UHGV virus genome: UHGV-0205583
Length of the DNA: 52,029 nucleotides
DNA from: a virus
Direction: 5' to 3' (one strand)
Each line of letters begins with the position of its first letter. Positions within the stretch are counted from its first letter, which is position 1. Positions 10,335 through 33,314 of this stretch are shown one piece after another. The translations under genes were made by a program, and so were the position numbers. A model generated the notes under the pieces. It saw only the letters and a list, made by a program, of their open reading frames with translations. It had not been told where the DNA came from and searched no databases.

Positions 10335-10354
10335 TACTGTATATAAAAACAGTG
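10335..10354. promoter_or_regulatory. LexA (SOS) box upstream of umuD
   Basis: TACTGTATATAAAAACAGTG fits CTGT-N8-ACAG perfectly and lies 20 nt upstream of the umuD ATG. Confidence 0.85.
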
Positions 10355-10374
10355 TTAATCTGAGCGAGTCAATT

Positions 10375-10794
10375 ATGCAGTTTTACACGCCCGTTGAGTT
10401 ACGTGAGATCATGCTGATCCCGTTGTACAGTGACCTTGTGCAATGTGGTTTTCCAAGCCCTGCACAGGATTACGTTGAGCAACGCATCGATCTGAACGAG
10501 TTGCTCGTTAACCACCCCAGTGCGACGTATTTTGTCAAAGCCGCCGGCGACAGCATGAAGGATGCCGGCATAGGAGAAGGTGATCTTCTTGTTGTGGATA
10601 GCTCAAGGACAGCAGTTCATGGCGATATCGTTATCGCTGCAGTGGATGGGGAATTCACCGTTAAGAAGCTGCAGCTGCATCCGCGGGTTCAGCTTAACCC
10701 AATGAACCCTGCATATTCGCCGATAGTCGTCGGTAGTGAGGACACTCTCGACGTGTTCGGGGTGGTTACGTACATCATCAAATCAGCTGGCTGA
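10375..10794 (+). CDS. umuD: DNA polymerase V subunit UmuD (S24 peptidase)
   Basis: About 75% identity to E. coli UmuD by eye ([50 protein letters not shown]). The start was chosen at [12 protein letters not shown]. Confidence 0.9.
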
Positions 10795-10795
10795 G

Positions 10796-12061
10796 ATGTT
10801 TGCACTTTGCGATGTGAACTCATTTTACGCATCCTGCGAAACTGTTTTCCGTCCTGACCTGAAGGGGCGTCCGGTGGTCGTTCTGTCAAACAACGACGGC
10901 TGTGTGATCGCCCGCTCGCAAGAGGCGAAGCCCTTCGTCAAAATGGGCGAGCCTTATTTCAAGCAAAAGGACATGTTTCGCCGGCACGGTATTATCGCGT
11001 TTAGCAGCAACTATGAGCTTTATGCCGATATGTCCAACCGAGTGATGACAACGCTGGAGGAACTCTCTCCACGCTGCGAAATTTACAGTATTGATGAGGC
11101 ATTTTGCGACCTGACAGGAGTTCGGAATTGTCGCGACCTTACCGACTTTGGCAGGGAAATTCGCGAGACGGTTCTGCGCAGGACGCACCTCACGGTCGGT
11201 GTCGGCATAGCCCAGACTAAAACCCTGGCAAAGCTGGCCAATCACGCGGCGAAACAGTGGCAGCGACAGACCGGAGGAGTGGTGGATCTGTCTAATCTTG
11301 AAAGGCAGAGGAAGTTGATGGCTTTGCTGCCGGTGGATGAGGTCTGGGGCGTCGGGCGCCGTATTAGTAAAAAGCTGGAGGCCATGGGGATTAAAACGGT
11401 ACTGCAACTGGCGGATACCGATATCCGTTTTATCCGGAAGCATTTTAATGTGGTTCTGGAGCGAACTGTGCGGGAGCTGCGCGGAGAGCCATGTCTCGGT
11501 CTTGAGGAGTTCGCGCCGGTAAAGCAGGAGATTGTCTGTAGTCGCAGCTTTGGGCAGCGGATTTCCACCTACGAAGAGATGCGCCAGGCGATATGCAGCT
11601 ACGCCTCACGTGCAGCGGAGAAACTCCGTGGTGAGCATCAGTACTGCCGCTTTATCTCAGCATTCGTCAAAACCAGCCCCTTTGCGCTGAATGAACCGTA
11701 TTACGGGAACAGTGCATCGGTAAAGCTGCTAACGCCGACCCAGGACAGCCGGGACATCATCACCGCGGCGACGAAATGCCTCCATGCAATCTGGCGAGAC
11801 GGACATCGCTATCAGAAAGCAGGCGTGATGCTTGGTGATTTCTACAGCCAGGGCGTAGCGCAGCTCAACCTGTTTGATGACAACGCTCCACGGCAGAACA
11901 GCGAGAAGTTGATGGAAGTTCTCGATCATCTCAATGCGAAAGACGGACGGGGAACTCTGTATTTTGCAGGGCAGGGAATCCAGAGCGCCTGGCAGATGAA
12001 GCGGGAAATGCTATCGCCACGTTATACAACCCGGTTTTCAGATCTACCAGTTGTCACGTGA
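10796..12061 (+). CDS. umuC: DNA polymerase V catalytic subunit UmuC (Y-family polymerase)
   Basis: The N-terminus MFALCDVNSFYASCETVFRPDL is near-identical to E. coli UmuC over its length. The ATG lies 1 nt after the umuD stop. Confidence 0.9.
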   Translation: MFALCDVNSFYASCETVFRPDLKGRPVVVLSNNDGCVIARSQEAKPFVKMGEPYFKQKDMFRRHGIIAFSSNYELYADMSNRVMTTLEELSPRCEIYSIDEAFCDLTGVRNCRDLTDFGREIRETVLRRTHLTVGVGIAQTKTLAKLANHAAKQWQRQTGGVVDLSNLERQRKLMALLPVDEVWGVGRRISKKLEAMGIKTVLQLADTDIRFIRKHFNVVLERTVRELRGEPCLGLEEFAPVKQEIVCSRSFGQRISTYEEMRQAICSYASRAAEKLRGEHQYCRFISAFVKTSPFALNEPYYGNSASVKLLTPTQDSRDIITAATKCLHAIWRDGHRYQKAGVMLGDFYSQGVAQLNLFDDNAPRQNSEKLMEVLDHLNAKDGRGTLYFAGQGIQSAWQMKREMLSPRYTTRFSDLPVVT

Positions 12062-12725
12062 CAGGGTCGATTAGCTCTGCTCCCTGATTTTTCACATTAC
12101 CCACGGCGCGCGTCACGGCGTGCCAGATAAACTTGTCGGCGGGTGCAGCCCCGTCGACTGCTATCTCTTCAGCTTCCTTACCGCCTATATCCTGGCACAT
12201 CCATTCGCGCGCTGCCTCCGGTGACAAAACCAGTGGCCGGCGGTCGTGAATGTCGACCAGCCCCTGATCGGCCGCAGCGGTCACTATCAAAAACCCTTCG
12301 GCTTCGTCTCCGCGCTCGAATGGGACACTGCCGATCGCCGCCATGAAGATTGGCTGTCCGTCGGCACGATGAATGAAATAGGGCTGTTTCCTGTCGCCCT
12401 CGCGCTTCCATTCAAACCATCCATCGGCAAAGCAGATCGCTCGCCCGTGCTGCCACAGGGGTTTAAACATTCTGCTGCTGGCCGCGGTCTCAACCCTGGC
12501 ATTAATCAATGGCGGTTTATCCCACCACCCTGGAGCGTAACCCCAGTGAACCGGATCGAGGTGCAGCTGTTCGTCGCGTTCGCTCAGGAGCAAAACTTTA
12601 GTCCCCGGTGCCACGTTGTAACGTCCAATCGGCTCAGGGTCGTATGCGATGTCGCGCTCGGCTTCATCCGCCAGGTATGCCAGATATTCTTCACGGGTTT
12701 GTGATTGAGCAAAGCGTCCGCACAT
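12054..12725 (-). CDS. yedK: SOS-response-associated peptidase (SRAP/YedK family, abasic-site processing protein)
   Basis: 223 aa starting MCGRF, with the Cys2 nucleophile, and SRAP-family conservation. Convergent with umuC and overlapping it by 8 nt. Confidence 0.85.
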   Translation of the reverse strand: MCGRFAQSQTREEYLAYLADEAERDIAYDPEPIGRYNVAPGTKVLLLSERDEQLHLDPVHWGYAPGWWDKPPLINARVETAASSRMFKPLWQHGRAICFADGWFEWKREGDRKQPYFIHRADGQPIFMAAIGSVPFERGDEAEGFLIVTAAADQGLVDIHDRRPLVLSPEAAREWMCQDIGGKEAEEIAVDGAAPADKFIWHAVTRAVGNVKNQGAELIDPVT

Positions 12726-26537: not shown

Positions 26538-27482
26538 TCAGCCGCCAAAATAGACGTAGCGATCAGGTGACTTCTGCCAGTTACACAGCGCGTCTTCAAT
26601 GACCTGCATCCTGAGATATGGTGCAGGGATAATTTCGGCAAGTTCAGCCAGTTTATCATTCAGAGTCTCTAGCCTATCACCTGCGCTCCGGCTGTTACTA
26701 AACAGCAGCCGACTCCCCTGAAGAGGGCCAGTAGCTCCCTTCAAAAAAGCATGCCCCGGTTCTGCCTCGATGAGTCCGGTTTTTCTTAGCATAGTCAGGT
26801 AATCAAATCGGGCGGTTCGTCCGAATGAAACCACCGCATTCAGGCCTGAATACAGCAATTCGAAAAGAGTAGCAGGTGTTGCCGCGAGGCTCCTTGCTTC
26901 TGCAAACCGGGCCTCGTGGCTGTATGTTGCACCAATAAATCCGAGATATGAACGAAAAACGACAGGTATAGAACGACGTGAATGATATTTTTTCGTTTCA
27001 TATTTGCGGTGGTTACCATACTGTCTTAGACTGCTATGTAGGGTCAGCTCATCAGAAACGCTGGCAAACCACTGTTCAAATGCATCAAAGTCATCAGTTA
27101 TGGCATCCCATGTCCACGTCTGGGTACCTAGTCCACTGTAAATATCGCGGCACAAAACCCAGCCTGTTTTACTACTCCGGCCAAAATGCGTGGCCAGAAA
27201 AACCAGCCAGCAGGCTTCGTCATAGTTGTTTTCACGCAGATGCAGACACGCAGCACGAAGAGGATCAAATAAATCTGAGTTTGGCTCTTTTCTTAGCGGA
27301 TTCATATAATCGGTTCGTGATGTCAGCGTTGACATATAGCGAATGCGGCGAATACTGTCAATAATCTGAAAGGCTAATACATTATAGTGAGCCGCAGAAC
27401 TCAGTCCGTTTAGGATATGTTTATCGCGACTGAAGTTTTGAAGAGCGGCGACCAACTGGCTTGCCTGACTGTGTCTGTTCAT
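26538..27482 (-). CDS. hypothetical protein, operon partner of the thymidylate-synthase-like gene
   Basis: 314 aa whose start overlaps the ThyA-like stop (ATGA at 27482). No family assigned. Confidence 0.5.
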   Translation of the reverse strand: MNRHSQASQLVAALQNFSRDKHILNGLSSAAHYNVLAFQIIDSIRRIRYMSTLTSRTDYMNPLRKEPNSDLFDPLRAACLHLRENNYDEACWLVFLATHFGRSSKTGWVLCRDIYSGLGTQTWTWDAITDDFDAFEQWFASVSDELTLHSSLRQYGNHRKYETKKYHSRRSIPVVFRSYLGFIGATYSHEARFAEARSLAATPATLFELLYSGLNAVVSFGRTARFDYLTMLRKTGLIEAEPGHAFLKGATGPLQGSRLLFSNSRSAGDRLETLNDKLAELAEIIPAPYLRMQVIEDALCNWQKSPDRYVYFGG

Positions 27483-28717
27483 TATATTTTCCCGTCAAAA
27501 ATAAATCGGTATTCCTGATTATTCAACGCAGTCAGCTCCTGACGGGCCAGCTCGTTGTGTGCCGACGTATGTGAACGTAACAAAAAATGGACTTTTATCA
27601 CGCGCAGAAGATCCTTCCAGTAGTCACTCAAGGGCGTAGTATCGATATTAAATTCCTTGTTTTCCCGCAGAGCCTTTTCTGCTTCAAGGATGACTGTAAT
27701 GTCCTTTAAGGATTGAATTTCGGGCATATCACCCATCACCGGCAAGGTACTCATAAAGCCTTCTTGTTGTAGCGCTTTTACTTGTTCAAAATGTTCTTCA
27801 TAGATATGGAGGCTTGAGACGAAGTGATGATAATACCCCAGTTTGCATCCGGTGAGGCGGGCGACCAGTTCCTGCAACATCGTGAAGGAGAACACATCAT
27901 GGGGTAAGCCCATAAAGGCATCGTTAGAGCGCATACAGACAAAAAGATGCAATGCATCTTGTCTGACAATAAATTGCAACGATATAGTGCACGGAATATC
28001 GGCATATTCTGTCTGCTCTGGATTACCCGTCACCAGATCTGAGGCATCAAACAGTTGTATCAGCGCGCGTCGAGTAGTTCTTTTCTCCTGCAGCAGACTG
28101 ATGACATTTTCCAACTGATTATACAGCCCGTGCATACTAAATAATCTCGGACCGTATCCCCCGTGTATTCTGCCGTCGGATTCAGCGTATTTTACGTAGC
28201 GAGGTATGAAGTGCCGGATGAAATCGAGATCGTTCTGGGCTGAGAGGTACCATAGCAATTCCCCCAGACAGCTGACAATTTTACCGCGGGATTCTGTCCT
28301 ACTTATTCTGCGGCGAGGATCGGTGAGAATCAGGTAGGCTCCCAGAATTTCAATATTTGCTCCTTTAGTGGGAGTATTCCAGAGTCCGCCAGTAAGGATC
28401 GCCTGATGGACATCGTTTAACAGATCGTCAACACATTCAGCCGTCACCAGAAGAGTCATAAACTGCCTGTTATATAATGAATGTAACAAATCATTACCAC
28501 TAGTGCGATAAATAGTCAACATGCCATTAGTAAAAACAGGGCTATAACCGCTATGACACATATCATCAGGTGCGAGGTTTGACACCCATGTTTCCTCCAT
28601 TCCCTCTGGAAGCAAAAAATGTTCACGTAGAATAAGAACTGAGGGACGCAGACGCATGCAGGCCACTCGCCAGGGTATTCCTCCAAATGAACTGGCCGGT
28701 TTCCTAATATCAGCCAT
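27482..28717 (-). CDS. thymidylate synthase superfamily enzyme (ThyA-like / candidate dNMP hydroxymethylase) with N- and C-terminal extensions
   Basis: Aligns by eye to E. coli ThyA across its core blocks (LGELLWYLS, YGPRLFSMHG, RRALIQLFD, and the catalytic IPCTISLQFIVRQDALHLFVCMRSNDAFMGLPHDVFSFTMLQ). 411 aa versus 264 aa for ThyA. Confidence 0.75.
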   Translation of the reverse strand: MADIRKPASSFGGIPWRVACMRLRPSVLILREHFLLPEGMEETWVSNLAPDDMCHSGYSPVFTNGMLTIYRTSGNDLLHSLYNRQFMTLLVTAECVDDLLNDVHQAILTGGLWNTPTKGANIEILGAYLILTDPRRRISRTESRGKIVSCLGELLWYLSAQNDLDFIRHFIPRYVKYAESDGRIHGGYGPRLFSMHGLYNQLENVISLLQEKRTTRRALIQLFDASDLVTGNPEQTEYADIPCTISLQFIVRQDALHLFVCMRSNDAFMGLPHDVFSFTMLQELVARLTGCKLGYYHHFVSSLHIYEEHFEQVKALQQEGFMSTLPVMGDMPEIQSLKDITVILEAEKALRENKEFNIDTTPLSDYWKDLLRVIKVHFLLRSHTSAHNELARQELTALNNQEYRFIFDGKI

Positions 28718-28750
28718 TAAAATAGCGCTGTAAACTTCATTACCAAATGC

Positions 28751-28818
28751 GGCGCGCCTGTAAGGGCCTGACTACAGGTTTAAACACTGTGCAACCACAA
28801 GTCCTAGGTCCGCTCTTC
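28751..28818. other. cluster of rare restriction sites: AscI (28751), PmeI (28778), AvrII (28803), SapI (28812)
   Basis: Two 8-bp sites, a 6-bp site and a type IIS site lie within 68 bp. Short GC-rich inverted repeats follow at 28807..28832 and 28851..28872. Confidence 0.7.
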
Positions 28819-29045
28819 GCTCATAGCGGACCTCCAAATCAGTTAGTTTGTCCGCTCTGTGCCAAGAGCGGAATCTGGAACGCCAGAGGTAGCAACGTTT
28901 CTTATCAAAGGTGTTGATCACCACAAAAATGACTGTATCCCTGTGATAGCGGATTTCGTCCTTTGTGGAGAAAAGATCAATCTAAACATGAGCATGGGTT
29001 AGCGAAAAGTGGCATTAAACGCTTGAACATTTCACCTAACAAGTA

Positions 29046-29065
29046 TACTGTTTATTTATACAGTA
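29046..29065. promoter_or_regulatory. LexA (SOS) box upstream of dinI homologue
   Basis: TACTGTTTATTTATACAGTA fits CTGT-N8-ACAG perfectly and lies 20 nt upstream of the ATG. Confidence 0.85.
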
Positions 29066-29084
29066 CTTGCGTGAGGAGCTAGTT

Positions 29085-29318
29085 ATGAAAGTGGAAATCA
29101 CAATTGATCGCCAAAAAAAATTGCCGGATGGCGCTGTGCCTGCTCTGGAGAAGGAGCTACTGCGGCGATTGGATCAAAACTTTAATAACTGCAGTCTTGT
29201 GATTCGTCGGGCCAGCTCCGATGGTTTGACCGTGCTTGGTGGAATGGACGGAGATAAAAAACGTATTGAGGAAATCCTGCAGGACACCTGGGAAAGCGCT
29301 GATGACTGGTTTTGTTAA
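29085..29318 (+). CDS. dinI: DinI-family DNA-damage-inducible protein
   Basis: High identity to E. coli DinI by eye (EVTI...LP.GA..AL..EL.RR, RIEEILQDTWESADDWF). Confidence 0.85.
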   Translation: MKVEITIDRQKKLPDGAVPALEKELLRRLDQNFNNCSLVIRRASSDGLTVLGGMDGDKKRIEEILQDTWESADDWFC

Positions 29319-29361
29319 GTTGAGGTCCATTGGCTTGCCTGGTTTATTTTGGGGATTTGGC

Positions 29362-29620
29362 TGTGAGTAAAAAACAAGAAATGCCGAACACCGGCTATGC
29401 AATTATCAGATGCGATGATGGGGTGATCGTTGCTCGTCTGACATCCTTTCCTGTGTCTGAGCGCGCTCTGATGTACCGGCGCGGAGACACTGTTTCGTTT
29501 ATGCCTTTGCAGCCGGATGAGATAGTGGGGACTCTCTCTCTTTTTTCACAGATGATTGAAAAGGCTAAGTCTGGAGTTGGTTACCAGGTTCCCCCTGGTT
29601 CTGTTACAATCCCGTCATAG
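29362..29620 (+). CDS. hypothetical protein co-transcribed with dinI (candidate antirepressor)
   Basis: About 80-86 aa, directly downstream of dinI in the LexA-boxed operon. Start is GTG at 29362 or ATG at 29378. Confidence 0.35.
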
Positions 29621-29660
29621 GCCTGAACAACCTATACCTGCTGCGTCGCGGAGAGAAACC

Positions 29661-30053
29661 ATGACGCAAACCCCCGAAGTATCAAAATCCCATCAGACTG
29701 GTGCTCCTTCATCGAGCGCCGGTTTGCTTTCGTCTTCAAAACTAACTTTTCGACAGCAGGAAGTTTTCGATCTGCTGGTGGCCTACATCAATCAGCATGG
29801 CTACCCACCTACGCTATCTGAGCTGGCCGATATGCTCGGCGTTAGCTCGTCTAATGCTGTCCTGTTGCATCTGCGTGCGTTAGAGAGAAAAAATTTTATA
29901 AAACTCTCTCGCCGTGTCTCCAGAGGAATTTCCATCGTCGGGCGAAAGGAGCCTGTGCTCGCCGTGCAGCTGCTGCAGGAAATGATCGCTGAAGAACCCG
30001 GCGCGCGTGAAAGAGCGATTGAGTTTTTACGACTGTTCGGTGATCAGCCATGA
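29661..30053 (+). CDS. LexA N-terminal DNA-binding-domain-only protein
   Basis: Residues 25-95 align to LexA 1-70 (LTxRQQEVFDL...G.PPT..E.A..LG..S.NA...HL.AL.RK..I....SRGI). No S24 peptidase domain follows. Confidence 0.6.
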   Translation: MTQTPEVSKSHQTGAPSSSAGLLSSSKLTFRQQEVFDLLVAYINQHGYPPTLSELADMLGVSSSNAVLLHLRALERKNFIKLSRRVSRGISIVGRKEPVLAVQLLQEMIAEEPGARERAIEFLRLFGDQP

Positions 30054-30253
30054 AGAAAAGTTGGTTTTTACACGAGCAACTTTCAGAGGCTGAAGCTACA
30101 GAGCTGGTGGAGCGATACCGTAAAAATAACTTTGTGGTTGAGAAAAGCTTGTCCAGAGACTTTGCATCGTGGGAGATCCGCGTGCTGTTGCCGGAATCGA
30201 AGAAGCCGCCACGGATTGACAGGACCTACATACAGAAGATGTGGAGGGACTGA
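30050..30253 (+). CDS. hypothetical small protein
   Basis: 67-aa ORF overlapping both neighbouring genes in the operon. Confidence 0.3.
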   Translation: MKKSWFLHEQLSEAEATELVERYRKNNFVVEKSLSRDFASWEIRVLLPESKKPPRIDRTYIQKMWRD

Positions 30254-31284
30254 TGCGAGCTTTGCTTAACGTGGATATTGCACGCCATCTTGGAATTGTG
30301 CTGCTTAAGCCGGGTAGTGAATTAATGCCGTTATTCGGTGCCGGCCGAGTTCTTGTGGAAATACCGCCGGCAAGCATGAAAAAGATACCCTGCGGGCGTC
30401 TTCCTAATGCCCGGCAGCCGTTGCGGGATGATATGGGGCTCAGACCATTTTTCATGAAGAAGGCAGTTATCACTGCGGCTGGTGGTGTTAGTGCTTTAGA
30501 GTCATGGTTGCGCCGGCAGGTTAAAAACTGTCAGTGGACACATTCCGATTACCATCACCATGAGCTCGTCCCGTTTCGCCATTCGACGGGTGTAATAATC
30601 GCATGCTGGCACTGTGATAATGAGCTGAAAAACCAAACAGAACAAACCCTCGATCAACTGGTAGGTGTTAATAACGCTGACTGGGTAATCGACACTGCCC
30701 GCATCGCGCTTGGTCTGGACGCTCAGCGCTCATTGTCACTGGCGGAGCTATGCTGGTGGGCGGTAGGCGCCGGGATTGGCGATGAAATTACAGAAGAAAT
30801 GGCGCGCCGATCCCTGCGTATTAAAGACGATGGCATTAAATCGATTTACAGGGAGAGTGAAATTGTTCCGTCGGTACCGGCCACCAGTATTCTTTCTCCC
30901 CGTCTCGAAAAAACAATCAAGCCAACGGCAATAACAACGCCGGGCAAACCTCTGGTTCCTGTGAACGTCGATCCTGTTGCTCCGGCGACACTATTCGCGA
31001 GACCTAAGCGGAGCCGATGGTTATCAGCTGACTTTATCTCATGGGTTAAAAAACAGCCGTGTATGTGCTGTGGGCAGCCTGCAGATGATGCACATCATCT
31101 TATTGGCTGGGGGCAGGGCGGCGTAGGCACCAAGGCCCACGATATTTTTACGATCCCATTATGCCGCAAGCACCACCGCGCTTTGCACCATGACCCTGCC
31201 GCTTTTGAGCGTGAATACGGCACCCAGCCGGTATTAATTATTAAATTGCTGGACCGGGCATACGCGCTCGGCGTTCTGGCGTAG
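30241..31284 (+). CDS. DUF968-like prophage protein with C-terminal Cys/His (HNH-like) cluster
   Basis: C-terminal CMCCGQPADDAHHL...LCRKHHRALHH. Sits at the position of the YdfU-type gene that precedes Q in the Qin prophage. Confidence 0.45.
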   Translation: MEGLMRALLNVDIARHLGIVLLKPGSELMPLFGAGRVLVEIPPASMKKIPCGRLPNARQPLRDDMGLRPFFMKKAVITAAGGVSALESWLRRQVKNCQWTHSDYHHHELVPFRHSTGVIIACWHCDNELKNQTEQTLDQLVGVNNADWVIDTARIALGLDAQRSLSLAELCWWAVGAGIGDEITEEMARRSLRIKDDGIKSIYRESEIVPSVPATSILSPRLEKTIKPTAITTPGKPLVPVNVDPVAPATLFARPKRSRWLSADFISWVKKQPCMCCGQPADDAHHLIGWGQGGVGTKAHDIFTIPLCRKHHRALHHDPAAFEREYGTQPVLIIKLLDRAYALGVLA

Positions 31285-31300
31285 TAAGGAGAAGAACAGA

Positions 31301-31903
31301 ATGACACCACGTCAACGCCGTCTGCACCGTGCAGGATTAGCAACAGTTGCCGCCGCCCCGCGCAAAAGCTGGCTGGGCCGATTCACTCCCCTTAATGGTA
31401 TTCAGTCCGCCTGGATAAAATCTCTGCTTACTGTTTGGGGGGAAGGGATGAGAGGAGGTGCAGCCCCGCGTAAACCATCAGGACATTCATGCTGGCGAGG
31501 TATGAAGGGTGATCACTGGTCAGATAGAGCATTAGAGCGCTTTACGGCAGCAATCGAGCAGGCAAGGAGTGAAGGCTATCGCGGGCGGCAGGCACTAAGC
31601 AGGGCGCATGCCATTTTGTGGCCAAAAACTCCAACTGTTGCCATTGACGCTGCGATCACTGAGGATGATGTTGAATTTGTTGAACGATGTGTACTGGCGA
31701 TATTTGAAACGGGTGATCCTGTTTATCTCGTTGGCGTTAACTATTACACCACCCGCAAAAAAATCTCAGACATAACACGGGAAATACAGCTGGTGGCTCC
31801 ATGGTTAACAGACAGTGAGGCCCGGAAAAGAGTGCGCTGGTGCCTTGAAATATTCAGAGCAAAAGCTTTCCTTTCTGTTCATAAGGCGATTCATGCGGAT
31901 TAG
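31301..31903 (+). CDS. candidate late-gene regulator (Q-position protein)
   Basis: 200 aa. Assignment is positional only (DUF968, then this gene, then terminator, late promoter and lysis genes). No family motif recognised. Confidence 0.3.
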   Translation: MTPRQRRLHRAGLATVAAAPRKSWLGRFTPLNGIQSAWIKSLLTVWGEGMRGGAAPRKPSGHSCWRGMKGDHWSDRALERFTAAIEQARSEGYRGRQALSRAHAILWPKTPTVAIDAAITEDDVEFVERCVLAIFETGDPVYLVGVNYYTTRKKISDITREIQLVAPWLTDSEARKRVRWCLEIFRAKAFLSVHKAIHAD

Positions 31904-32023
31904 CAAAAAGTGCTATGTTGCCTTTTTGGTATTGAAAATGGGCCAGAAAGTTAGATAATTCCTTCATGCTTGGCAGAGCTGCGCCACTCGGCAGCGACAA
32001 AAAGCGACAATCTGAATATAACG

Positions 32024-32048
32024 AAAACCCCGCCCGTGCGGGGTTTTT
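32024..32048. terminator. bidirectional rho-independent terminator
   Basis: AAAA-CCCCGC-ccgt-GCGGGG-TTTTT lies between two convergent genes. Confidence 0.7.
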
Positions 32049-32146
32049 GCTTTCCGGCGATATGACAGGGGTATTCGCGAGATGCGCTGCATCAATACCC
32101 CTGTCATATCGTCGTATTGCATACGCAATCTCACATGCTTCAGCAT

Positions 32147-32350
32147 TCACTGAGGATTTTTAGTGATTTTTTTGAAGATCTCTAGGGCTTCGGTTGTTAA
32201 CTGATCATGTTCGCTAAAGTAACTGTCACATGCTGCCTGCTTTTGAGCAGGGGATAGATTAGGGTTGCTTGTTAATTCAGCAGTTTTAGCTGCTATTTCT
32301 GCCAAACGTTCAAAAATCTCTGAAATTCTTTGGTTATCAGTAGATAGCAT
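32147..32350 (-). CDS. hypothetical small protein
   Basis: 67-aa ORF convergent with the Q-position gene. Start context is AGGTAAGTAAAATG. Confidence 0.3.
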   Translation of the reverse strand: MLSTDNQRISEIFERLAEIAAKTAELTSNPNLSPAQKQAACDSYFSEHDQLTTEALEIFKKITKNPQ

Positions 32351-32495
32351 TTTACTTACCTCGTATTTACCTGATATCAGTGAGTGCTACATTGAGTCAG
32401 GGCTTCGCAATAGCTTTAAGTATTAGAATGCATACAATTTAAGTGGGCGTTGTTGGCTTATATTATGGCAGAGGCGCTGGCGGTATGGTCAGATA

Positions 32496-32525
32496 TTGAC
32501 ACTTTGAATGTTTGCATCATAAATT
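32496..32525 (+). promoter_or_regulatory. candidate late promoter (TTGACA-N18-TAAATT) driving structured RNA copy 1
   Basis: Consensus -35 hexamer. The -10 hexamer ends 5 nt before the first G of the element. Confidence 0.4.
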
Positions 32526-32530
32526 ATTGA

Positions 32531-32641
32531 GGTGGTGAATCCCCCTATGCGGAGGGGCGACCAGTCAGTTACAGAAACCTGTAAATGCAGCGCGGGCCAT
32601 GCCGACTGGGGCATGCTCACCGGGAGGCACCCGGCACCACA
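32531..32641 (+). ncRNA. put-like structured leader RNA, copy 1
   Basis: Closing stem GGUGGUG...CACCACA. Internal hairpins CCCCU-augcgg-AGGGG, UUACAG-aaac-CUGUAA, CAUGCC-gacugg-GGCAUG and CCGGG-aggca-CCCGG. Confidence 0.45.
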
Positions 32642-32804
32642 CTGTCACTAAGCATATTGAATATTTCATAGTGGGTTTACTTTTGCGGTTGCCCTTCTAT
32701 GTTTATAGAACGTAACGGCAAAAGTGAATGCTTCCTGGTAAATCGGTAGCTCGGACTATTAGGTGCACCTTCCTTTCGTTACAGCCTTGGTTGCCAATTT
32801 TCTT

Positions 32805-32830
32805 CCCGCTTCTCTGGCGGGTTTTTTTAT
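32805..32830 (+). terminator. rho-independent terminator about 165 nt downstream of RNA copy 1 (tR-prime-like)
   Basis: CCCGC-ttctctg-GCGGG followed by T7. Confidence 0.65.
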
Positions 32831-32984
32831 TCATAATCTGCCAAAAAAAACATCAAAGCAAGGAAGGCGATGGATTCATTTGCAGGAACTCCTTTCCCCT
32901 TCAACGGAGACAGGCTCAAAGCAATAAGAAGCGGAACAGAAGGATGCTTTGCGCCGAAAAATTAGGTCATAGCGACGCATGGCA

Positions 32985-33013
32985 TTGAAGAGACGTTATT
33001 GAGATGTTAAGTT
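32985..33013 (+). promoter_or_regulatory. candidate promoter (TTGAAG-N17-TAAGTT) driving structured RNA copy 2
   Basis: Same geometry as for copy 1, with the -10 hexamer 5 nt upstream of GGTGGTG. Confidence 0.35.
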
Positions 33014-33018
33014 TTATG

Positions 33019-33123
33019 GGTGGTGAATCCCCCTAGCGGAGGGGCGTAAACAGTTAGAAGCGAATCCTCAGCGCGAGTCACGGTGACTGACCAACGACTT
33101 ACCGGGAAGCACCCGGCACCACA
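33019..33123 (+). ncRNA. put-like structured leader RNA, copy 2
   Basis: Same architecture as copy 1, with compensatory changes in two stems (CCCCU-agcgg-AGGGG and GUCAC-gg-GUGAC replacing CAUGCC..GGCAUG). Confidence 0.45.
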
Positions 33124-33314
33124 ACTTCACCTCAAGCCCACGTTAACGCGTGGGCTGTTCTTTTCCAGCGGATCTATTCAAAGGCTGCGCATTTGCGTGG
33201 CCTTTTTCATTTCAGGCTCACGGGAATCATCATCGATACGGCTCGTTGTTAAATCAGCCCGATGGGCCTGACCCCCTACACGCACAAAGCACCCCGTTAA
33301 TCCGGAGGTGGAGT

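Follow-up and report, generated by a model that had tools for sequence, protein, structure and literature searches.

The protein LexN (130 aa), encoded by the third gene of a dinI operon in a lambdoid Klebsiella prophage, is a LexA-type winged-helix DNA-binding domain (DBD) followed by a helical tail, without a protease. The stretch of 52,029 nucleotides that was analysed as a whole, hereafter the window, comprises this operon together with its prophage surroundings. By analogy with the protein gp6 of phage GIL01, we tentatively favour the view, to which we give somewhat less than an even chance, that LexN may be a non-cleavable, SOS-induced phage DNA-binding regulator with a diverged specificity of its own. 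The question has been narrowed, in that LexN appears, as judged from sequence, to be a conserved, non-cleavable, LexA-derived predicted DNA binder with a diversifying recognition helix. What is most informative about it in this prophage is that it belongs to an SOS-gated induction operon and that its recognition helix lacks the counterpart of LexA Glu45. Members of the LexN family are common in the prophages of Klebsiella, E. coli (including Shiga-toxin phages), Salmonella and Shigella, and the Klebsiella form, wired as it is into an SOS-controlled induction module, could shape prophage induction by DNA-damaging antibiotics, umuDC mutagenesis and competition among prophages; its importance would grow if it were true that LexN closes SOS boxes after induction.

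Domain architecture and selection

By sequence inspection, LexN starts with an ATG located seven bases 3' of GGAGAG, and the motifs LTFRQQEVFDL, PPT, LGVSSSNA, HLRALERK and SRGI are all found in its translation. The protein matches the Pfam family LexA_DNA_bind (PF01726) over residues 26-89 with E=1.9e-20 and 72.8 bits (cut-off 23.7), and a phmmer search against the PDB placed E. coli LexA first (1jhf, E=1e-14), pairing residues 27-121 of the protein with residues 3-95 of LexA. An AlphaFold2 (AF2) model, which was built with 49 family members, has pLDDT values of 84-90 over residues 30-95, and its topology, three helices with a two-strand wing, is that of LexA. The model superimposes on the chains of the LexA-DNA complexes 3jso and 3jsp with an rmsd of 0.6-1.8 Å over 65-67 residues at 52% identity; the fold of 1lea was also matched, and weak structural matches beyond the DBD were to MntR, BlaI and MarR-type dimers. 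The similarity to LexA that the sequence-only reading had pointed out thus held in both the profile comparison and the structure prediction. Furthermore, no match to the S24 peptidase family PF00717 was found in LexN by Pfam at E<=1, the chain ends 35 residues past the wing without equivalents of Ser119 and Lys156, and the score against the NCBIfam lexA equivalog TIGR00498 (68.2 bits) is below the cut-off of 110.95. Pfam, phmmer and the AF2 fold therefore agree with the same reading in describing a stand-alone LexA DNA-binding domain without the peptidase.

The C-terminus had also been described as short and devoid of the autoprotease. While there is indeed no Ser/Lys peptidase, this part of the protein is more than a short end, as it forms two conserved predicted helices (Table 1). 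Over residues 26-128, LexN matches positions 2-104 of the 106-position profile of PHROG 362 ('transcriptional repressor') with E=2.3e-41, including the tail motif AxxLLxxLxxxExxARERAIxFL. Compared with E. coli LexA, then, the winged HTH is 52% identical and superimposes within 2 Å, and the hinge is weakly alignable up to LexA residue 95; LexN differs from LexA in having no S24 domain, an Ala-Glu in place of Ala84-Gly85, the two-helix tail and a 25-residue N-terminus that is predicted to be disordered. In the HMMER alignment, residues 96-121 of LexN correspond to LexA 75-95, with I-A-E-E-P placed on A83-A84-G85-E86-P87, so that the Ala84-Gly85 cleavage site would fall on Ala110-Glu111, the alignment being weak in this stretch. 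About a quarter of the LexN relatives keep V-A-G-E at the position of the cleavage site, where LexA has V-A-A-G-E. As the tail can be aligned, if weakly, with the hinge of LexA and these relatives retain V-A-G-E, the LexN family looks like a lexA gene that was cut off near codon 100. Cleavage of LexN itself in trans is unlikely, judging from the replacement of the cleavage-site Gly by Glu.

The I-A-E-E-P alignment and the V-A-G-E of some relatives could also be taken to mean that the tail is a pseudo-substrate or decoy for S24 peptidases or RecA*, which blocks the active site of LexA, UmuD or a CI-type protein, or is cut in trans. We regard this as very improbable, since Gly85 is Glu in LexN and the LexA change G85D makes that protein non-cleavable, AF2 predicts a helix-loop-helix here rather than a strand, and, apart from the weakness of the alignment, a Gly at a helix C-cap suffices as an explanation of the motif.

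The ratio dN/dS of LexN, computed against relatives at 72% and 61% protein identity, is low in both the DBD and the tail (Table 1), and the two are therefore functional and under purifying selection. The N-terminal extension is barely constrained, yet its frame and length are retained. One could argue that LexN is a functionless, decaying remnant of a captured lexA, as it covers only about the first 100 residues of LexA and has this nearly neutral extension (dN/dS 0.64-0.85). However, hundreds of prophages carry the gene with an intact frame, the DBD and the tail have a dN/dS of 0.15-0.21, the Shine-Dalgarno sequence is good, the gene is translationally coupled to orf67, and the tail is conserved and family-specific; the selection and conservation data effectively refute this reading, to which we attach almost no credence.

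Table 1. Features of the window (nucleotide positions) and of the LexN protein (residues)
Feature	Position	Strand	Remarks
Second SOS box	10337..10352	+	24 nt upstream of the umuD ATG (10376); umuC next
SOS cargo	10337-12725		SOS box, umuD, umuC and convergent SRAP/YedK-like gene
SRAP/YedK-like gene	12054-12725	-	PF02586, E=1.5e-51
Prophage repressor, 129 aa	20561..20950	-	HTH_3 only, no S24 (Pfam)
HTH_3 + Peptidase_M78 protein, 360 aa	25453-26535	+	ImmA/IrrE-like; HTH_3 N-terminal, M78 C-terminal
Thymidine-hypermodification pair	26538-28717	-	314-aa aGPT-Pplase3 / amino-acid:DNA transferase (PF18746, E=1e-89); 411-aa thymidylate-synthase-like protein (PF00303, E=4e-28)
TCCGCT/AGCGGA hairpins	28809-28830, 28851-28872		
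-35-like TTGAAC	29023-29028		
-10-like TATACT	29044-29049		overlaps the dinI SOS box
Perfect SOS (LexA) box CTGTTTATTTATACAG	29048..29063	+	cassette promoter
dinI homologue	29085..29318	+	first cassette gene; Pfam DinI, E=1e-25
orf85	29363..29620	+	PHROG 1813; Gifsy small-antirepressor slot, assigned by position only
LexN gene	29661..30053	+	LexA-like; 130-aa product
orf67	30050..30253	+	PHROG 1212; start overlaps LexN stop (ATGA); co-conserved in Klebsiella and Enterobacter loci
DUF968 / His-Me finger (HNH) protein	30253..31284	+	Pfam DUF968, E=9e-70; start overlaps orf67 stop
Q-like late antiterminator	31301..31903	+	PHROG 753, E=9e-55
PR'	31932-31959		3' of the Q gene
tR'	32024-32047		3' of the Q gene
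STnc100 sRNA family (RF02076), copy 1	32499-32704	+	79.9 bits
STnc100 sRNA family (RF02076), copy 2	32991-33162	+	68.9 bits
LexN N-terminal extension	residues 1-24		predicted disorder (AF2 model); dN/dS 0.64-0.85
LexN LexA-type winged HTH	residues 26-95		profile and fold match; dN/dS 0.15-0.18 (DBD)
LexN recognition helix	S63-S-N65-A66-V-L68-L69-H70		
LexN tail	residues 97-126		two predicted helices, pLDDT 84-88; kept across the family; dN/dS 0.17-0.21

The SOS-controlled cassette and its surroundings

The window represents a lambdoid prophage of Klebsiella that shares 96-98% identity with the phage Kp4865-4, with ST846-OXA48phi9.1 and with several 'plasmid' records. It holds exactly two perfect SOS boxes, one upstream of umuD and the other upstream of dinI, in accordance with the two LexA-boxed loci, umuDC and dinI, of the sequence-only reading; that LexN is the third gene of the LexA-box-controlled dinI operon is a placement which was absent from it. 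The order of the cassette is SOS box, dinI, orf85, LexN, orf67, the DUF968/HNH gene and Q, with gaps that are very short or replaced by stop/start overlaps. No terminator-like site was predicted between LexN and Q, and one terminator-like match (29694-29726), no more than expected by chance, lies inside the 5' coding region of LexN. The prophage repressor, being without an S24 domain, is not self-cleaving and presumably needs an antirepressor.

This arrangement is the one described by Lemire et al. in Gifsy prophages, which consists of a LexA box, dinI, a small antirepressor and a short uncleaved repressor (PMC3121763). The operon of Gifsy-1, -2 and -3 and the LexN cassette share a LexA box over the promoter, dinI as the first gene, a small ORF as the second and a short non-cleavable repressor, and both are positioned between the replication genes and Q. 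The LexN cassette thereby matches a Gifsy-type antirepressor induction module by analogy, the antirepressor role of orf85 being putative and assigned by position. The third genes differ, with DUF1367 (the irsA homologue STM2620) in Gifsy-1 versus a LexA domain in the LexN cassette. A correspondence of LexN to the Gifsy third gene 'irsA' was ruled out, as the Gifsy-1 irsA homologue is the DUF1367 gene; orf85 was likewise rejected as a GfoA homologue for want of sequence similarity. A homologue of orf85 in the Gifsy-like phage SPN3UB sits between dinI and a DUF1367/irsA-type gene. Under our preferred reading, host LexA would hold the dinI-orf85-LexN promoter closed until DNA damage and the cleavage of LexA open the cassette, and LexN, co-transcribed with dinI and the putative antirepressor, would be made only when LexA has undergone cleavage, or by lytic read-through. 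Unlike LexA, LexN sits inside an SOS-repressed phage operon and would therefore be present when LexA is absent.

The conservation of the cassette was examined in 80 IMG/VR loci fetched with the LexN-led family alignment. The block from the SOS box through dinI, orf85, LexN and orf67 to DUF968 is 95-100% conserved in 76 of them, and the remaining four carry about 72%-identical LexN relatives in an unchanged gene order. In 69 of the 80 loci an SOS box is located at about -613 from LexN, or at about -565 to -612 where the cassette is a variant, and the dinI SOS box is also kept in the loci of Klebsiella sp. I138 and of Enterobacter; some cassettes are without dinI, yet retain the SOS box, orf85 and LexN. 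Across the fetched loci the identity of the repressor gene, on the other hand, amounts either to 100% or to no more than 29-47%, and Q is variable too. Since the block is conserved while the repressor and Q vary, it appears to behave as a mobile cassette. In the phages examined from E. coli, Salmonella, Kosakonia and Cronobacter, the nin region encodes a 105-111-aa form of LexN, the gene of which comes immediately behind that of a Dam/Dcm methyltransferase and ahead of DUF968 and Q, with rusA or kilA-N/ant in between in some cases. In these loci the repressor is of the S24 type wherever the immunity region is included, and the dinI operon is found in none.

The DUF968 gene lies downstream of the LexN homologue in every locus examined, including 66 of the 66 E. 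coli-type loci with enough sequence. This constancy, which extends over LexN identities of 42-100% and differing intervening genes, is consistent with a different function, i.e. that LexN is a DNA-targeting or accessory subunit for the DUF968 His-Me-finger nuclease, for RusA or for the methyltransferase, with the tail as the interaction surface. The stop/start overlaps along LexN-orf67-DUF968 agree with it, as do the occurrence of the DBD in frame with RusA in three Kluyvera loci and, in the loci examined from E. coli, Salmonella, Kosakonia and Cronobacter, the placement of the gene close behind that of a Dam/Dcm methyltransferase, which it overlaps slightly or from which a small gap separates it. 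However, gene order in the lambdoid nin region is conserved for modular reasons, and many of the loci are near-identical cassettes rather than independent cases. In addition, DUF968 occurs in 175 phage records compared with 72 for LexN, including that of P1 (PdcB), which argues that LexN is not required, and PdcA of P1 is unrelated to orf67. We therefore think such a role improbable. PADLOC gave no defence-system link.

A number of further observations were made in these loci. In the Kluyvera loci L007 (5956-6675), L010 (5956-6624) and L018 (1-546), the LexA-type domain is in frame with RusA and the helical tail is absent, which reflects either a fusion protein or a deletion that joined adjacent genes. 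The Edwardsiella phage EPP-1 (L204, 3286-3501) encodes a 71-aa LexA domain with no tail, the stop of which abuts the DUF968 start. Directly after Q, and on the opposite strand, a Kosakonia prophage (L208, 6757-8834) carries a RelA_SpoT-domain gene and an NA37 (nucleoid-associated) gene, which look like a moron or a defence-like insert. Within the window, the umuD and umuC genes behind the second SOS box are accompanied by a convergent SRAP/YedK-like gene, and a thymidine-hypermodification pair, present in one of the 80 related IMG/VR loci, is located just upstream of the dinI cassette. The variable early-right operon region also encodes an ImmA/IrrE-like protein; M78 proteases of this type cleave repressors in other mobile elements. 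Furthermore, two members of the STnc100 sRNA family lie in the leader of the late operon, in the interval from tR' to the lysis genes (Table 1).

Recognition helix, operator search and the proposed regulator

E. coli LexA reads the CTGT half-site mainly via S39, N41, A42 and E45 of helix 3 (PMC11442139), and E44 has been added to the CTGT-reading residues (PMC3091678). R28 makes a backbone contact, and E45 and N41 read bases (PMC11442139; bioRxiv 10.1101/2020.07.14.201889). It has been reported that the change E45K abolishes specific SOS-box binding (bioRxiv 10.1101/2020.07.14.201889), and that changes in helix alpha-3 retarget LexA across phyla (PMC4951493). LexN keeps S39, N41 and A42 (as S63, N65 and A66) as well as R7, Q8 and the SRGI wing, and carries Leu68 for E44, Leu69 for E45 and Leu52 for R28. 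In the set of 49 family members, no substitution occurs at S39 or N41 and hardly any at A42; Glu is absent from position 44, E, D, A, L, T and V occur at position 45, and H, M and T at position 46. The column entropies at the positions equivalent to P40, E44 and E45 are 2.05, 1.52 and 2.06 bits, respectively, and those of S39 and N41 are 0. The helix forms a series of AAEH in Raoultella, V[TA]LH in the K. oxytoca group and VLLH in the K. pneumoniae group, and cassettes with VLLH, VALH or AAEH all carry an identical SOS box upstream.

The pattern suggests a LexA-like docking surface combined with a diversifying base-reading edge. Because Glu45, Glu44 and Arg28 are replaced by Leu and these positions vary in the family, binding of LexN to canonical SOS boxes seems doubtful, and the helix pattern would fit a specificity that drifts from phage to phage better than it would a faithful copy of LexA.

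We searched for an operator of LexN by scans of the cassette, of the PR' region and of the whole window for palindromes; apart from the pair of SOS boxes and one hairpin of RNA type, nothing specific emerged, and no candidate was found. Specifically, no convincing LexN operator was returned by the scan for inverted repeats in 28700-33300, by the scans for xTGT-N6-10-ACAx, or by the window-wide test for enriched palindromes, nor did alignments of the dinI-upstream and PR' regions between phages with different recognition helices provide one, with no candidate at PR'. The SOS box is the sole operator-like palindrome that is co-inherited with the cassette. A palindrome GTGTTGATCACCAC at 28911 was rejected, as it is present in only about half of the cassettes, and the top palindrome, TCCGCT-N10-AGCGGA, was rejected as a strand-specific RNA-type hairpin. 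This hairpin, TCCGCT-[xxGTGCCAxx]-AGCGGA, occurs twice in the window (Table 1), and in loci L042-L121 at positions -810 and -1.8 to -6 kb relative to the gene. It lies on the early-right strand in every Klebsiella locus, the lone opposite-strand near-match being a divergent copy in an E. coli locus. As its stem variants pair (as G-U) only on the early-right strand, it looks like an RNA element, and it has neither a U-tract nor an Rfam match.

The outcome of these searches bears on the most serious alternative, namely that LexN is a non-cleavable LexA surrogate, which would occupy canonical SOS boxes after the loss of LexA and hence turn induction into a pulse followed by SOS shutdown. LexN would close again the dinI-antirepressor operon from which it is made, together with umuDC, the SOS genes of the host and those antirepressor operons of rival prophages that LexA controls. 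We consider this alternative unlikely, but it keeps a substantial probability, because no LexN operator was found and the cassette is accompanied by no palindrome other than the SOS box. The docking residues are invariant along with S39, N41 and A42, the DBD is 52% identical to that of E. coli LexA, some relatives have E45 or D45, and the helix of the EPP-1 domain, SPNAAEDH, is almost that of LexA. Moreover, Kim and Little are said to have found in 1992 that the isolated N-terminal domain of LexA can dimerise on operator DNA. These points are opposed by the Leu residues of LexN at E45, E44 and R28, the first of which is the site where E45K abolishes specific binding by LexA. They are also opposed by the lack of E44 throughout the family, by the variation of positions 44-46 while the SOS box stays constant, and by the phages of E. 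coli, Salmonella, Kosakonia and Cronobacter, in which the gene belongs to a nin region driven by PR, the dinI operon is absent, and the repressor is of the S24 type in each locus that extends to the immunity region. The more far-reaching version, in which such an uncleavable stand-in for LexA would provide the prophage with a built-in pulse generator and, in polylysogenic Klebsiella, with a weapon against its rivals, is in our opinion less likely again.

We thus return to the tentatively preferred reading of LexN as a regulator with its own specificity. RecA* would be unable to remove LexN, which has no protease and in which the Ala-Gly site is Ala-Glu. LexN probably dimerises via the two-helix tail, in which the small or hydrophobic residues A101, L104, L105, A115, A119, F122 and L123 are conserved, so that the tail would stand in for the interface provided by the protease domain of LexA. 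LexA-like docking is most likely, because S39, N41, A42, R7, Q8 and the SRGI wing are invariant, and the dimer would probably dock in this manner, with its base readout changed (E45L, E44L, R28L), at a palindrome of its own. LexN might in this way serve as a phage-specific regulator of transcription in the early or induction phase, and would not simply duplicate LexA at SOS boxes. The points that we count against this model are the outcome of the operator search, with the SOS box as the only co-travelling palindrome, the retention in LexN of three of the four main CTGT-reading residues, and the many relatives with E45 or D45.

The closest known precedent is gp6 of GIL01, a tectivirus of Bacillus thuringiensis. 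This truncated LexA homologue, in essence a DNA-binding domain, binds to GaCACAnnTGTGaC and switches on the late promoter P3 (PMC6182141). It is expressed upon DNA damage from an early promoter that LexA represses, and the palindrome to which it binds is one of its own and not the host LexA box (PMC6182141). Both gp6 and LexN are phage-encoded truncated LexA homologues behind a LexA-repressed promoter. However, gp6 is of Firmicute LexA origin and has a short C-terminal extension, whereas LexN has a conserved helical tail, and the late switch is the gp6-activated P3 in GIL01, as established experimentally, versus the Q antiterminator in the LexN prophage.

Distribution of the family

A phage-encoded LexA mimic had been called unusual, which is contradicted by the abundance of the family: it comprises 161 clusters at 90% identity in a search of 5.8 billion proteins, is represented in 72 phage records and is found on hundreds of IMG/VR contigs. 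The two main Klebsiella clusters have 1017 and 664 members, named 'DNA-binding protein' or 'LexA family protein'. The 72 deposited phage genomes with a PHROG 362 protein, for which a Salmonella member was the query, include mEp460, cdtI, SfII, SfIV and the Stx2a, Stx2c and Stx2k phages. In IMG/VR, at least 585 stretches match the E. coli allele of the family, and 226 encode a relative of the LexN-led family alignment. LexN is therefore a further member of a catalogued family that is common in lambdoid prophages; no experimental paper on this enterobacterial family was found in the searchable literature.

The PHROG 362 proteins of these phages (mEp460 gp46, cdtI orf48 and those of SfII, SfIV and the Stx2 phages) share with LexN the DBD, the tail and a gene position upstream of DUF968 and Q. 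They differ from it in their length of 105-108 aa, without the N-terminal extension, and in a helix that is usually S-x-N-A-A-x-[ED]-[HM]. In mEp460, cdtI and the Stx2k phage, the gene follows that of a Dam-type methyltransferase in the PR-driven nin region, the repressor is of the S24 type and there is no dinI operon. A profile search of 1.84 billion representatives returned many further short LexA-domain proteins, some of which have two tandem domains. The proteins P0129, P0136, P0145, P0157 and others, for instance, are 140-190 aa long and contain two LexA-domain stretches per chain, apparently without a protease.
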